Shown here one piece after another: positions 56,384-64,000 of a DNA stretch of 64,000 bases; position 1 is the first letter of the stretch; each line of letters begins with the position of its first letter. The position numbers were made by a program, and so were the translations under genes. This stretch comes from Lachnospiraceae bacterium (GTDB taxonomy: Bacteria; Bacillota; Clostridia; Lachnospirales; Lachnospiraceae). The notes beneath the pieces were generated by a model, which saw only the letters and a program-made list of their open reading frames with translations, was not told the origin of the DNA and ran no database searches. The stretch covers positions 2,477-66,476 of the forward strand of contig JAFRSH010000027.1 in NCBI GenBank assembly GCA_017427685.1, in the 5' to 3' direction.

Positions 56384-56489
56384 ATTTGACATCTCTGACA
56401 ACTTTTTCTTTATTTAACGAACAAGACATGCTATAATAGCAAACGGTAGGGACGATGTTGCGTTTTGAAAAGTGGGAGATGATCAAATC

Positions 56490-58283
56490 ATGAACAATAC
56501 ATCTACTGTTGCAAAATCACGAAGGTATATCGGTCTGATTTCGGTATATCTTGGTTGCATTCTTATAAACATTCTTTTCAGCAGGCTTTGTGGGCTCCTC
56601 GAGATCCCTCTGTTCCTTGACTGCATCGGAACTCTTCTTGCTGCGATCTGCGGAGGCTTCCTGCCGGGTATCATCGTCGGGTACGTGACGAACCTGATCA
56701 ACTCGGTCTTCAATCCGCCCACCGCCTACTACGCAGTGATAAGCGTGCTGATCGCGCTTTCCGCATCGGCCCTGGCTTACAAAGGTTTCTATAAGAAGTT
56801 TTACAAATCGCTTGTTTCAATCCCGGTCTTTACTTTTTTGGGTGGCTTTTTGGGATCGCTTCTTACTTATCTCCTTTACGGCTTCGGAATGGGAGAAGGG
56901 ATCTCGGCGCCCTTTGCGCAGAAGCTGCTTGCAAACGGGACCTTGAGTGTTTTCTCGGCGCAGCTGATCTCTGATGTTGCGATCGACATCATCGACAAGA
57001 CCGTTACGGTTCTTATAGTCTATGCTCTGTTAAAGCTCATACCGGAGAAAATCCGGGATTCGATAGCGCTCACCTCATGGCAGCAGAGACCCCTTGACAG
57101 GGATGAGATCAGAGCTTCCCACAACATGGACGTAGCGCGCAGAAAGCTCAGCAGCAGGATCATCATGATCGTCGGTTCTGTCATGTGCTTTGTGGCGGTA
57201 ACGACGTGCATCATTAGCTACGTGATATATGATCAGTTTGCACAGGATCACTTCGCGGTCATGGGCTCGGTTGCCGACGTGTCTGCCGAAGCGGCGCCCG
57301 TGGACGGAGTGATGTTCATCACGAGGCTGGCCTCGCTCTTTATCGGTTTCTTCATTGTGGTACTTGTGTTCTGCCTGTGGCACATGAAGTACCACATGAC
57401 CTATCCGATCAATTCCATGACCTTCGCTGCAAGGCAATTTGCCTATAACAGCGAGGAAGAGCTTGAGACGGGACTGAGGAGTCTGGCAGACCTTAAGATC
57501 TCAACGGGAGACGAGATAGAGAAGCTCTACGAGGCTGTACTTAAGACCATGGGTGATACTGTCGGCTATCTTGAGGATGTTCGTGTAAAAGGAGAGCAGA
57601 TCTCCAGGATGCAGAACGGTCTGATCTACATCCTCGCCGACCTGGTTGAGAGCCGCGACAAGTGCACGGGCGACCATGTCAAGAAGACAGCGGCCTATGT
57701 GAGGCTGATCCTCGAGCTCCTGCGCGACAGCGGAGAGTATGGCGGCGTGGTTACGGACGAGTACATCGAAGATGTGTGCAACTGTGCGCCTCTTCACGAC
57801 ATCGGCAAGATCAAGGTTTCCGACCTTATCCTCAACAAGCCCGCCCGTCTGAATGACGAGGAGTTCCTTGAGATGCAGAAACACACGACAGCCGGAAAGA
57901 AGATCATCGAGAGCGCCATGGAGCTTACGGGCGGTTCTTCGGGATACCTTAAAGAGGCGCTTAACCTTGCCACCTATCACCATGAGAAGTGGGACGGCTC
58001 GGGTTATCCGGAGGGCCTGAAGGGTGAGGAGATACCTCTTTCCGCAAGGATCATGGCTGTTTCGGATGTATATGACGCGCTTCTTTCGGATCGAAGCTAC
58101 AAGAAGGCTTTCTCACACGAGGAAGCAATGAGGATACTCAAAGAGGGCTCCGGCAAGCATTTCGATCCTGTCATCGTGAGACTGTTCTCGGAAAACGAGG
58201 ACAAGGTCAGGAAGATAGAGGAAGAAAACAGAAAGCTGATCAACAGTGAAAAAACAGAAAACGATTATATGAGAGCGGTGTGA
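56490..58283 (+). CDS. HD-GYP domain c-di-GMP phosphodiesterase with a multi-pass membrane N-terminal region
   Basis: At least six hydrophobic helices, then HDIGKIKV and HHEKWDGSGYPEGL. An upstream in-frame GTG at 56472 is possible. Confidence 0.8.
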   Translation: MNNTSTVAKSRRYIGLISVYLGCILINILFSRLCGLLEIPLFLDCIGTLLAAICGGFLPGIIVGYVTNLINSVFNPPTAYYAVISVLIALSASALAYKGFYKKFYKSLVSIPVFTFLGGFLGSLLTYLLYGFGMGEGISAPFAQKLLANGTLSVFSAQLISDVAIDIIDKTVTVLIVYALLKLIPEKIRDSIALTSWQQRPLDRDEIRASHNMDVARRKLSSRIIMIVGSVMCFVAVTTCIISYVIYDQFAQDHFAVMGSVADVSAEAAPVDGVMFITRLASLFIGFFIVVLVFCLWHMKYHMTYPINSMTFAARQFAYNSEEELETGLRSLADLKISTGDEIEKLYEAVLKTMGDTVGYLEDVRVKGEQISRMQNGLIYILADLVESRDKCTGDHVKKTAAYVRLILELLRDSGEYGGVVTDEYIEDVCNCAPLHDIGKIKVSDLILNKPARLNDEEFLEMQKHTTAGKKIIESAMELTGGSSGYLKEALNLATYHHEKWDGSGYPEGLKGEEIPLSARIMAVSDVYDALLSDRSYKKAFSHEEAMRILKEGSGKHFDPVIVRLFSENEDKVRKIEEENRKLINSEKTENDYMRAV

Positions 58284-60880: not shown

Positions 60881-61948
60881 ATGATTTCGAATATGTCATA
60901 TAAGGATATCGCTGATAAACTCGCTACGGACAGGAACCTCTCGGATGAGGAGTTCCTTGAAGTGATCTGTGCTCCCTTCGGGGAGATCGATGAGCTGCTG
61001 GCCGAGCGTGCAAGGGAAGTCAGAGAGAAGTATTACGGCAAGGATGTGTACCTGCGAGGACTGGTTGAATTCTCGAACATCTGCAGGAACAACTGCTATT
61101 ACTGCGGGATCCGTCGCGATAATAAGAACTTCGACCGCTACAGGCTCACCAAGGAGCAGATCCTTTCGTGCGCCGACACGGGCTACGAGCTCGGGTTCAG
61201 GACCATCGTTCTCCAGGGCGGTGAGGACAGACACTTTACGGCGGAGATCATGGCCGACATCATAAGCGCTATCAAGGAAAAACACAGCGATTGTGCAGTG
61301 ACCCTGTCGATCGGCGAGATGGAGAGGGAAGAGTACGAGATCATGTTCAGGGCGGGTGCCGACAGGTACCTCCTGCGCCACGAGACAGCCGACAAGGAGC
61401 ATTATGAGAAGCTTCATCCCGCCGGGATGTCGTTCGAGCACAGGATGAATTGCCTGAAGGTCCTCAAGGAGATCGGTTATCAGGTCGGATGCGGGATGAT
61501 GATAGGGTCGCCCTACCAGGAGCCGCGCCACCTTGTGAAGGACCTGCGTTTCCTGATCGATTTCAAGCCGGAGATGGTCGGGATCGGACCCTTCATACCT
61601 CATCACGACACGCGGTTCGCAAACTTCGAGGCCGGGAGCGTGCCGCTTACCCTGAGGCTTCTGTCGGTGATCAGACTCATCCTCCCGGATGTGCTGCTGC
61701 CCGCAACGACGGCACTCGGGACGGTCGACCCCAAGGGTCGCGAGAAGGGACTCCTCGCCGGAGCCAACGTTATCATGCCGAACCTTTCACCCACCGATGT
61801 CCGCAACAAGTACCTGCTCTATGATAATAAGATCTGCACGGGCGAGGAAGCAGCCGAGTGCATCAGATGCATGGAGCGCCGTGTAGAGAGCGTAGGGTAT
61901 AAGGTTGCTATGACCAGAGGAGATCATGTGAAGTATTCGGTAAAGTAA
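60881..61948 (+). CDS. hydE: Radical SAM protein, [FeFe]-hydrogenase maturase HydE-like (BioB/HydE family)
   Basis: CRNNCYYCGIR CxxxCxxC motif. About 350 aa with BioB-like core blocks (VLQGGE, ETADKEHY, GMMIGSP). An alternative ATG exists at 60893. Confidence 0.7.
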   Translation: MISNMSYKDIADKLATDRNLSDEEFLEVICAPFGEIDELLAERAREVREKYYGKDVYLRGLVEFSNICRNNCYYCGIRRDNKNFDRYRLTKEQILSCADTGYELGFRTIVLQGGEDRHFTAEIMADIISAIKEKHSDCAVTLSIGEMEREEYEIMFRAGADRYLLRHETADKEHYEKLHPAGMSFEHRMNCLKVLKEIGYQVGCGMMIGSPYQEPRHLVKDLRFLIDFKPEMVGIGPFIPHHDTRFANFEAGSVPLTLRLLSVIRLILPDVLLPATTALGTVDPKGREKGLLAGANVIMPNLSPTDVRNKYLLYDNKICTGEEAAECIRCMERRVESVGYKVAMTRGDHVKYSVK

Positions 61949-62044: not shown

Positions 62045-63319
62045 TTATGCCCTGTTCTTTTTCTTCAACTTTATCTGCTTCAGTTTAAGATTCGTATTAT
62101 AGAAGTCCTTAGTCGAACATCCGGCACGTCCGCCGCCGGCGCAGGCACATGCACAGGCGCACGCACAGGAGTGAGCGCAGGCGCAGTGGCTGTGGGCGCA
62201 TGAACTGTGAGCACAGGAGCTCCTCGGAGGAGGAGGGGCAGGGATGTGAGTCACATGTACTCTGATAAATGTGTTCGGACTCGAACCGTAGCGGTAAGTT
62301 CCTTCGTTTGAGTAGTTCTCGGGATTGGTGATCTCTTTCTCCTCAACGACTTCTTCACTTTCGATAAAGCTTCGGCCGCAGTACGCACACTTTTCGGCGT
62401 TTTCGGGCCTCGGAGCCGCACAGCCCGGGCACTCGGGATAATACTTGATGAGCGTACGGGTTATCTTCTTTGTGGTCTTGGGCTGCGAGCTGAAACCGGT
62501 TCCTTTAAAGTAGCTTTTTATCTTGGAGACGATCACTCTGATACCTATCCAGAAAAGGAACACAGGTATCAATTCTATGAAAGCCACGCCCACGGAGAAA
62601 TCGTCGTAATCATAGTAATCATCGTAGTCGTAGCTGTAATAATCAAATCCATTGCTGTTCTGGTAGCCGTTGCCGTATGCATCATAAGCGTTGGCCGTCT
62701 TTGAAGTATCAAATGCGAAGGCATCGCTTGGATAGGTCACGCTGATCTCTTCGAACTTCGCGCCTGCCGAAAGAGTGCCCTTCCATACCAGTTTCCCGTC
62801 TTCGGTCGTGGCGCCGTGGCTCCACGCAGTTGCTTTGTCTGCATTCCAGATGATCGTGAGGTTGTCGACCGGGATGTCCTTGAACCAGCCGGGAGTGAAG
62901 TAGTACACCGTCTCGCCTTCCTTGAGGACATTCATCTCGTACATGTAGTCCTGGATCACTCTGAAATCAAAGTTGACGATATCATCCTTGTAGTACTTGT
63001 TCTTAAAGTAGACCTGAGCGAACACTTCAGAGCCGGAAAACTGAACTTTGACATCTTGGATGTTGTCGCTCACTTTCGCGCAGGACTTGTAATTAGAATT
63101 CGGAATTCCGATCTGAACCCAGTCGAGCGCGCCGATGCTGTCGTCGAGGACCTTCCACTCGATGTGGTAGAGCATGTTGAGGGTCGCGTCATCGTTCACA
63201 TCCACAGTGATAGTGAAGTCAAGTATCTCGTCGGTAGGCTGGGCCTTAACGCCTATGCCGGGAAGTGCGACTGCCGCAACAAGGACGAGGGAAGCTAAGA
63301 TAGAAAGTAATTTTTTCAT
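62045..63319 (-). CDS. Membrane-anchored protein: secreted N-domain, Tyr/Asp-rich stalk, TM helix, cytoplasmic zinc ribbon and Cys/His/Ala-rich tail
   Basis: Signal peptide LLSILASLVLVAAVALPGIGVKA. YYSYDYDDYYDYDDF; TM VAFIELIPVFLFWIGIRVIV; CPGC...CAYCG. Tail SSCAHSSCAHSHCACAHSCACACACACAGGG. AGGAGG RBS. Confidence 0.7.
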   Translation of the reverse strand: MKKLLSILASLVLVAAVALPGIGVKAQPTDEILDFTITVDVNDDATLNMLYHIEWKVLDDSIGALDWVQIGIPNSNYKSCAKVSDNIQDVKVQFSGSEVFAQVYFKNKYYKDDIVNFDFRVIQDYMYEMNVLKEGETVYYFTPGWFKDIPVDNLTIIWNADKATAWSHGATTEDGKLVWKGTLSAGAKFEEISVTYPSDAFAFDTSKTANAYDAYGNGYQNSNGFDYYSYDYDDYYDYDDFSVGVAFIELIPVFLFWIGIRVIVSKIKSYFKGTGFSSQPKTTKKITRTLIKYYPECPGCAAPRPENAEKCAYCGRSFIESEEVVEEKEITNPENYSNEGTYRYGSSPNTFIRVHVTHIPAPPPPRSSCAHSSCAHSHCACAHSCACACACACAGGGRAGCSTKDFYNTNLKLKQIKLKKKNRA

Positions 63320-64000
63320 CTTGAGCCTCCTTCCTTTTCGGAATGGTCATTCTTATCCGAAATTATTGAGACTTCAGAGCTGTCGTCTGTATTAGTACTC
63401 TTGTAGCTGCTTATAATGTGATCTGTCTTTTCACCGGATCGTGAAGACAAATCGGCGGGTGAGTTTTTCCGCAGAGGGCACCTGCCCAGCATAAGCGCCG
63501 AGAAATCCCTGCGCTTCTTGCATGCTTCGCTGTTCCAGATGTCTTCCCATTTGTCTGTGAGGAAGTTGCCGAGGGGTGCGCCCGAGAGCCAGCTCTGGCA
63601 GGGCACCACATTGCCGCCGGGGGTGATGGCCATGTTGCTGAGACATGCGCCGCAGTTCGGGGTCGAGAGGGCATGCTCCGCAAAGAACTCACCGTCTATC
63701 CAACCCGGGGAGGTGAAGCTGATCTCCATCCCGTTAGCATAGGCGTAATCGGCCGCGTCCGCGAGGATATCGCTGATCTCACGGGGAGAGAGCTGCAGCG
63801 ACTCCGAAGCATCTTTGAGGGCGTTGCCGGTCGTGATGAGACCGGAGCAGGTGACGTAGGTGACACCTTTCTCCTTAAGGAAGCGGAGAGTTTCGACGTA
63901 GTCCTTGTTAAGAGTGCACAGGGGCGTGTTGACGCTGAGACTCAGTCCCGCTTTGAGGGCGTTCTCGATGCCGGCCACCGTGTCGTCGTAGTGGTTCGCG
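63316..64000 (-). CDS. Radical SAM enzyme, C-terminal part with a SPASM/twitch-type Cys cluster (5' end outside the window)
   Basis: ...NCGACLSNMAITPGGNVVPCQSW...LGNF...IW...C...CP. The frame stays open to position 64000. The stop overlaps the downstream ATG (ATGA). Confidence 0.7.
   Translation of the reverse strand, partial: ANHYDDTVAGIENALKAGLSLSVNTPLCTLNKDYVETLRFLKEKGVTYVTCSGLITTGNALKDASESLQLSPREISDILADAADYAYANGMEISFTSPGWIDGEFFAEHALSTPNCGACLSNMAITPGGNVVPCQSWLSGAPLGNFLTDKWEDIWNSEACKKRRDFSALMLGRCPLRKNSPADLSSRSGEKTDHIISSYKSTNTDDSSEVSIISDKNDHSEKEGGSR

Follow-up and report, generated by a model that had tools for sequence, protein, structure and literature searches.

The window analysed here is a 64,000-nucleotide stretch of contig JAFRSH010000027.1 from a Lachnospiraceae bacterium. 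At its far end, two overlapping genes on the minus strand encode a radical SAM enzyme and a type I membrane protein, the partner, which carries an unusual Cys-rich tail at its C-terminus. These two genes, and the question of what the enzyme does to the tail, are the subject of this report. The features of the locus are listed in order of transcription, with positions counted from the first letter of the window.

63316..64000 (−): radical SAM gene, 3′ part, 227 codons, cut by the window end
63316..63465 (−): C-terminal extension of the radical SAM enzyme, low-complexity and Ser/Asp/Lys-rich, about 50 aa, missing from most orthologues (about 450–460 aa)
63316..63319 (−): ATGA overlap of the radical SAM stop codon TGA with the partner start codon ATG (CTCAAGATGAAAAAA)
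62045..63319 (−): partner gene, encoding a 424-aa type I membrane protein with a DUF2207-like ectodomain, transmembrane (TM) helix, zinc-ribbon domain and Cys tail
63242..63319 (−): signal peptide, residues 1–26 (...GVKA/Q), read directly from the sequence; helix 2–18 in the AlphaFold2 (AF2) model
62690..63241 (−): predicted extracytoplasmic beta-sandwich, about residues 27–210 (AF2 pLDDT >90; Foldseek E ~1e-6)
62597..62641 (−): Tyr/Asp-rich stalk YYSYDYDDYYDYDDF, residues 227–241, variable among homologues and predicted to be disordered
62528..62593 (−): single TM helix, residues 243–264, with a Lys/Arg-rich segment directly after it
62240..62470 (−): predicted cytoplasmic zinc-ribbon beta domain, residues 284–360 (282–360 in the AF2 model), with CPGC at 297–300 and CAYCG at 311–315 (pLDDT 80–90)
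62168..62221 (−): variable Ser/Cys/Ala/His repeats SSCAHSSCAHSHCACAHS, whose number and composition differ among homologues
62099..62167 (−): invariant tail core CACACACACAGGGRAGCSTKDFY, residues 385–407, including C401-x3-D405; putative target of modification or of recognition
62048..62098 (−): C-terminal basic amphipathic helix NTNLKLKQIKLKKKNRA (AF2 helix 410–423) with a conserved T-x-L...[LI] pattern

An earlier, sequence-only reading of this DNA had described both genes, and its account of their parts is borne out. The minus-strand radical SAM open reading frame (ORF) has the C-terminal Cys cluster and the ATGA overlap with the 424-aa gene, as confirmed by direct reading and a PF13186 match. 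It contains NCGACLSNMAITPGGNVVPC...C...CP, runs off the window at 64000 and ends in ...EKEGGSR followed by TGA. The signal peptide, beta ectodomain, Tyr/Asp stalk, TM helix, CPGC...CAYCG motif and Cys/His/Ala tail of the partner are likewise all where they were placed. The tail segment SSCAHSSCAHSHCACAHSCACACACACAGGGRAGC corresponds to residues 367–401 (about 62117–62221, read from the sequence). In the AF2 model of the partner, a confident beta-sandwich (residues 30–197, pLDDT >90) is followed by the disordered stalk and the TM helix; residues 366–409, which include most of the tail, are disordered (pLDDT <50), and a terminal helix spans residues 410–423. The C-terminal part is assigned to the cytoplasm because the Lys/Arg-rich segment follows the TM helix. 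The tail is thus predicted to be both disordered and cytoplasmic, within reach of a radical SAM enzyme.

The partner belongs to a large family that has no Pfam or NCBIfam model of its own. A homology search recovered at least 2,789 proteins, and the 120 best homologues, where named, derive from Lachnospiraceae and other Clostridia metagenome-assembled genomes (MAGs). Family members are 300–470 aa long and occur in two architectures with the same tail. The long form (about 420 aa) has a zinc ribbon, as in the window; the more numerous short form (about 330 aa) has the same ectodomain and TM helix and lacks the ribbon. The ribbon has four invariant Cys and gives a weak Zn_Ribbon_1 match in 4 of 28 homologues. 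Its presence in the window protein was correctly noted at the outset, but most members of the wider family do without it. In Foldseek searches, the ectodomain resembles the lumenal domain of ribophorin I/OST1 as well as the M1 aminopeptidase N-domain (E ~1e-6). Weak matches to the PF09972 (DUF2207) N-domain are found in 9 of the 28 homologues (best E = 3.8e-4), with none for the window partner itself at E <= 0.1; searches of Pfam and NCBIfam with the window partner returned nothing useful and no sulfatase domain. From these matches the ectodomain appears to be a distant relative of the DUF2207 N-domain. The overall plan is also that of DUF2207 proteins: signal peptide, N-terminal beta ectodomain, TM segment and low-complexity C-terminal tail. 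Canonical DUF2207 tails are Gly-rich, without a Cys motif, and these proteins are not known to pair with a radical SAM enzyme. In the literature searched, no paper joins DUF2207 and radical SAM, and nothing relevant was found on the motif string, on the pairing, or on the combination of zinc ribbon, SPASM and Lachnospiraceae.

The pairing of the radical SAM enzyme with a tailed partner is strict. A scan of one genome per species located 80 partner loci, mostly in rumen or gut MAGs. Cultured carriers are the isolate Sarcina sp. DSM 11001, which is among these loci, and Lachnospiraceae bacterium YSD2013, which is on the homologue list. In 78 of the 80, a radical SAM orthologue lies directly upstream on the same strand (tblastn; 58–81% identity, covering residues ~4–464). 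The two remaining loci end without upstream DNA, hence all 78 testable loci are paired. The co-occurrence that the sequence-only reading proposed to look for is found throughout, and it extends to further loci of both architectures. Short-form partners lie directly downstream of radical SAM genes of 451–458 aa (L088, L090, L103–L107), and a reciprocal check starting from the radical SAM homologues P0202 and P0193 revealed a tailed protein of 398–400 aa downstream, with a 4-nt overlap. One locus (L091:646-4927) encodes three tandem tailed paralogues (299, 309 and 342 aa) and then a single radical SAM enzyme (458 aa), the opposite gene order to that in the window. Upstream is a gene for a 157-aa membrane protein.

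The distance from the radical SAM stop codon to the partner start codon is mostly −1, −4, −8 or −11 nt across loci. The ATGA coupling is real in the window strain. The last ~50 low-complexity residues of the enzyme are strain-specific, and therefore so is the exact overlap; other overlaps are typical elsewhere. A same-strain variant contig (L006, 46–636) has a shortened extension (ending ...SSYRRQL) and a 55-nt gap in place of the ATGA overlap. Assemblies of gut metatranscriptomes contain contigs of 90–95% similar orthologues that cover the partner gene (62055–63448). One such contig crosses the junction between the two genes, and a 150-nt contig matches the window exactly. This is weak evidence suggesting that the pair is transcribed in vivo; carry-over of DNA is possible.

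No other gene accompanies the pair. Unbiased clustering of all flanking ORFs yielded no third conserved gene, the best other cluster being present in 8 of 81 loci. Nor do the flanking ORFs of these 81 loci include a conserved protease, exporter or additional tailoring enzyme. In Bacilli MAGs carrying the short form, the module sits among housekeeping genes, for example rimM/trmD/rplS or comEC/holA/rpsT.

The most conserved part of the partner is its tail. When 1.84 billion cluster representatives were searched with just the 59-residue tail as query, 209 clusters at 50% identity matched at E <= 1e-3. Anchored on the Arg residue, 147 representatives of 50%-identity clusters share the consensus CACACAGGGRAGC-S-x-K-D-F-Y, in which 16 of 19 core positions reach at least 97% invariance. 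The other three are the Ser (87%), the free position x and the Asp (91%; 134 D, 11 N, 1 E and 1 H). Residues unable to ligate metal (Gly, Arg, Ala, Lys, Phe and Tyr) are as invariant in the core as Cys. The core remains invariant in homologues down to 37% overall identity, and all of the 80 loci with enough sequence carry the tail. The same holds for the 120 best homologues, which reach down to 42% identity; all but one (P0004) end in a near-identical tail. The exception (378 aa) matches 79% of the partner at 100% identity; an internal deletion after ...ITNPEN shifts the reading frame of its tail region (…CPSSSEELLCSQFMRPQPLRL…), which reflects either an assembly error or a natural allele that has lost the tail. 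Past the core comes the T-x-L...[LI] helix, and the chain terminates 9–32 residues beyond the core. This helix, NTNLKLKQIKLKKKNRA in the window, is possibly a 'follower' recognition segment.

The sequence-only reading had taken a Cys/His/Ala hexamer repeat to be the key feature of the tail, a view that does not hold. It is the invariant CACACAGGGRAGC-S-x-K-D-F-Y core that forms the functional unit; the SCAH repeats upstream of it are variable in number, absent in some homologues and dispensable. The quasi-hexamer GCRCAN DNA said to encode the tail is present as a periodicity, which is weak (TRF period 6, 8.8 copies, 63% matches). Length variation among homologues is seen in the SCAH repeats; the core is of identical length in close relatives.

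This weak periodicity is all that speaks for the view that the tail is a low-complexity product of slippery, GC-rich DNA repeats, or that its adjacency to the enzyme has no functional meaning. Over 77 loci, the Cys positions of CACACA draw on TGT and TGC to about the same extent, each Ala is encoded by three or four different GCN codons, and the Arg by several codons; the amino acids are fixed. Because synonymous codons vary freely while residues do not, selection acts on the peptide rather than on a DNA repeat. The repeat number of the core is constant among close relatives, and the pairing holds in 78 of 78 testable loci, in two architectures, in two classes of Bacillota and in a changed gene order. 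A meaningless association is hardly tenable on these grounds, and the related reading as a DNA-repeat or contingency locus was rejected on the codon variation and the identical core length.

Candidate free-standing tail peptides were also considered. The tail-only search returned small matches of 59–130 aa, and those inspected are fragments. A tail ORF without ectodomain (L101:1420-1761) abuts dxr on a 2.2-kb contig that has no radical SAM gene. Truncation of a longer gene or chimeric assembly seems a better account of it than a peptide gene standing on its own. A second candidate (L102) is a frameshifted short contig and was rejected. By-eye comparison of GRAGCS with the glycyl-radical motif R-[IVT]-[CSA]-G-Y and with the sulfatase motif C-X-P/A-X-R showed that neither fits.

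The complete radical SAM enzyme was read from a longer public contig identical to the window (L001:8463-10004); the same protein sequence is found on longer contigs. It has 513 aa, with an N-terminal extension of ~175 aa before the radical SAM motif. Three parts can be distinguished: an N-domain with a predicted RRE-like fold (about residues 1–135), the radical SAM core and a partial SPASM/twitch-like C-domain. The CX3CX2C motif, which lies outside the window, reads C179-NQC-C183-VH-C186 and is invariant in 72 orthologues. PF04055 (Radical_SAM) scores 76.2 bits against a cut-off of 29.5. The SPASM model PF13186 scores 36.7 bits with the window fragment and 34 bits with the full enzyme (cut-off 21.5); the SPASM model TIGR04085 gives 20.6 bits, below its cut-off of 27. 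The earlier designation as a SPASM enzyme is thus right as far as PF13186 goes, but does not extend to a full SPASM domain. The first half of the motif is present (C405-X9-G-X4-C420), and since the CX2CX5CX3C block is missing, the C-domain is best termed partial SPASM/twitch-like on its sequence. Further conserved Cys are C258, C314, C337, C402, C405, C420, C446 and C460, of which C258, C314, C337 and C402 may compensate for the missing block. In a diverged orthologue (L088:742-2097, 48% identity), C314V, C405N and C446A occur together, and its partner keeps the full tail. The joint replacement suggests that C314, C405 and C446 together ligate one auxiliary cluster, lost in this orthologue.

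With the full gene in hand, NCBIfam places the enzyme in no subfamily with a known, unrelated substrate. The best equivalog match, NirJ2, scores 96.9 bits against a cut-off of 500, and each of the 25 listed models scores far under its cut-off. Membership of the NirJ, AhbD, MoaA, PqqE, MftC or SkfB equivalogs was rejected on such sub-threshold, generic scores; HxsC and ScmE/F are likewise below. The orthologues, most of them 450–460 aa, carry only the name 'radical SAM protein'.

By sequence profile, the best solved relative is SkfB (E = 3.6e-17, 18% identity), followed by GDGT-MAS (E = 5.6e-14), PqqE, BtrN, MoaA, CteB and SuiB. C402 and C420 have Cys counterparts in the alignment with the C-terminal domain of SkfB. 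The AF2 model of an orthologue (P0124, pTM 0.79) has an N-domain of four beta strands and then three helices (residues 15–122), an RRE-like topology. Top Foldseek matches of this model are SkfB (E = 2.5e-12, 405 aligned columns), SuiB, TigE, anSME (E ~4e-10) and CteB. Whole-chain alignments cover 405–470 columns for the RRE-bearing maturases, versus ~345 for anSME, which has no N-domain. The enzyme is therefore modelled with a maturase-like fold.

Taken with the strict pairing, these observations point to a two-gene module of gut Bacillota in which the radical SAM enzyme probably modifies the tail of its membrane partner, not a secreted peptide. Genomic context and fold together make the tail somewhat more plausible than not as the substrate. 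Assignment of the chemistry is tentative: by analogy, the reaction may be thioether formation. This chemistry is favoured because thioethers are the products of the nearest relatives, because Cys is among the invariant residues, and because C401-x3-D405 matches the PapB motif. The proposed sequence of events is as follows. (i) The radical SAM enzyme would bind the disordered cytoplasmic C-terminal tail of the adjoining DUF2207-like membrane protein. (ii) A Cys thiol of the tail would bind an auxiliary Fe-S cluster. (iii) The 5′-deoxyadenosyl radical would abstract a hydrogen atom from the acceptor residue. (iv) The invariant CACACAGGGRAGC-S-x-K-D-F-Y core would thereby be modified after translation, with one or more intramolecular thioether crosslinks of the sactionine or ranthionine type as the product. 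(v) One candidate crosslink pair is C401 and D405, a putative Cys-X3-Asp site of the kind used by PapB. (vi) The product would stay on the membrane protein. Because no protease or exporter belongs to the module, this would be protein maturation rather than production of a secreted, ribosomally made and post-translationally modified peptide (RiPP). The earlier suggestion of the tail as an atypical radical SAM substrate has thus gained from the pairing, the conservation of the tail, the lack of any subfamily match with a known unrelated substrate and the maturase relatives; the substrate role and the chemistry keep the graded strength given here.

Several observations weigh against this proposal. 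Its support comes from genomic context and fold. The RRE-like domain finds no RRE or PqqD match in a Pfam scan at E <= 10 (noise only), and a PDB profile search with the N-domain alignment gave noise only. Foldseek alignments to the maturases have a high root-mean-square deviation (7–16 Å) and reflect the whole chain rather than the N-domain alone. The full seven-Cys SPASM motif is absent, C420 being followed by C446 and C460 only, and no NCBIfam model for sactipeptide, ranthipeptide or SCIFF (six-Cys-in-forty-five) maturases comes near its cut-off with the full enzyme. The candidate substrate, a membrane protein of 300–470 aa without the usual N-terminal RiPP leader, is unusual for the enzyme class. 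The proposed Asp acceptor is not strictly invariant, as the counts above show. Finally, the Cys-X-Cys run also resembles a metal-thiolate or Fe-S binding site.

This last resemblance underlies an unlikely but substantial alternative, in which the tail, instead of being modified, acts as a metal-thiolate or Fe-S-binding module. Its role would be to anchor the radical SAM enzyme at the membrane or to provide the enzyme with a cluster, sulfur or electrons; the enzyme would have a different target there, for example a lipid, a small molecule or a precursor of the cell envelope. Alternating Cys-X-Cys near His/Ser/Gly stretches does look like metal-binding tails. Such tails usually vary in length and sequence, however, and here it is the SCAH repeats, which resemble a metal binder most closely, that vary and are dispensable. 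Within the core, residues that are not ligands (G, G, G, R, A, G, K, F and Y) are as invariant as Cys, which argues for recognition by an enzyme over simple metal binding. The second-best solved relative, GDGT-MAS, is a lipid-modifying enzyme, but its match is limited to the generic radical SAM core (query 164–266). The undetectability of an RRE by sequence and the placing of Bacilli MAG modules among housekeeping genes, outside any biosynthetic island, are both consistent with this alternative. Three tailed paralogues per enzyme in the reversed locus suit several substrates better than several tethers.

A second alternative retains modification of the tail and alters its outcome. The tail would be the precursor of a peptide-derived cofactor or small product, as in PqqA/PqqE and MftA/MftC, and would be cut off by a protease encoded elsewhere. 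The precursors of PQQ and mycofactocin have Glu...Tyr and Val-Tyr modification sites, which the invariant K-D-F-Y beside Cys recalls. Generic PqqE and MftC model scores of the enzyme are moderate (82 and 72 bits), but far below the cut-offs (381 and 265 bits), and many unrelated radical SAM models do at least as well. The neighbourhood conserves neither a protease nor an exporter or additional tailoring enzyme, and a membrane carrier of 300–470 aa with a conserved ectodomain would be left unexplained. This alternative is very unlikely.

Modification of a tail that stays on its protein, as preferred here, can be compared with several characterized systems. SkfB, the thioether-forming radical SAM maturase of sporulation killing factor, has an N-terminal RRE and a twitch domain. 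The window enzyme is modelled with the same domain order, and its gene likewise adjoins that of a Cys-containing candidate target. The two share only 18% identity, and the SkfB NCBIfam model, with a cut-off of 300 bits, scores 60. SkfA is a short leader-bearing peptide that is secreted, and its operon has export and immunity genes; here the putative target is a tail on a 424-aa membrane protein, and genes of that kind are absent. PapB, which acts on PapA in freyrasin formation, crosslinks the Cys of Cys-X3-Asp/Glu motifs with their Asp or Glu (PMC9413430). The tail has one Cys-X3-Asp (C401-STK-D405) and a CACACA run, unlike PapA with its six repeats, and the product would not be released. NxxcB uses an Asn acceptor in NxxcA and tolerates Ala, Gln and Asp (PMC9389541); the variation between Asp, Asn and Glu at the acceptor position of the tail matches known NxxcB acceptors. 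No close sequence relationship of the window enzyme to PapB or NxxcB was shown.

CteB and its SCIFF peptide CteA provide a parallel from Clostridia, with a Cys-rich target encoded beside a SPASM radical SAM enzyme, and CteB is among both the sequence and the fold matches. The SCIFF peptide, by contrast, is ~45 aa long with another motif, the SPASM domain of CteB is complete and holds two auxiliary clusters, and the SCIFF maturase model is absent among the 25 best NCBIfam matches. A strong fold match, anSME offers a parallel to the proposed activity, being a radical SAM/SPASM enzyme whose Cys target sits in a full-length protein and not in a RiPP. The differences are that the tail, read directly, has no C/S-X-P/A-X-R motif, the partner has no sulfatase domain, and anSME lacks the N-terminal domain. 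With RRE-type RiPP maturases in general (SkfB, CteB, SuiB), the module shares a putative cognate precursor with a conserved core adjoining the enzyme in 78 of 78 testable loci. It differs in having no short, leader-bearing precursor, no protease or exporter and no complete SPASM motif.

The other genes of the window neighbourhood are not part of the module. HydE, a polysaccharide deacetylase, a chemoreceptor and an HD-domain protein lie nearby in the window, and none is conserved beside the module in other loci. The gene convergent with that of the partner (60881–61948, plus strand) encodes a true HydE, the maturase of [FeFe]-hydrogenase, with a TIGR03956 score of 559 bits (cut-off 255). It adjoins the module in only 1 of 81 loci, and a link to hydrogenase maturation was rejected. 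At 56472–58283 (plus strand), a 603-aa protein combines an N-terminal membrane domain with an HD-type domain resembling c-di-GMP phosphodiesterases, an unusual sensor-like fusion. Its membrane domain resembles the S component of an ECF transporter (CD3073 family, 79 bits, below cut-off). Past the chemoreceptor and HD-domain genes, the longer contig encodes a 1,373-aa protein with no Pfam match on record (L001:17015-21136, minus strand).

A more elaborate form of the proposal deserves mention, although it is improbable. The tail might become a crosslinked and/or cluster-bearing redox or sensing centre, a new kind of prosthetic group, built after translation and kept at the cytoplasmic face of the membrane. 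Such a centre would couple the extracellular binding domain of a DUF2207-like receptor to an intracellular, radical-made cofactor. If so, the module would represent a protein-maturation system without described counterpart, widespread in gut Clostridia and Bacilli.

Maturases of the SkfB, CteB and PapB type are known for acting on short, leader-bearing peptides that give rise to secreted natural products. Here, the same architecture is tied to the cytoplasmic tail of a membrane protein. The 19-residue motif is short, invariant and suited to mass spectrometry. If the tail is modified, the chemistry of peptide maturases would extend to the maturation of a membrane protein, and a large, unannotated DUF2207-related family, thousands of sequences strong, would gain its first functional lead.

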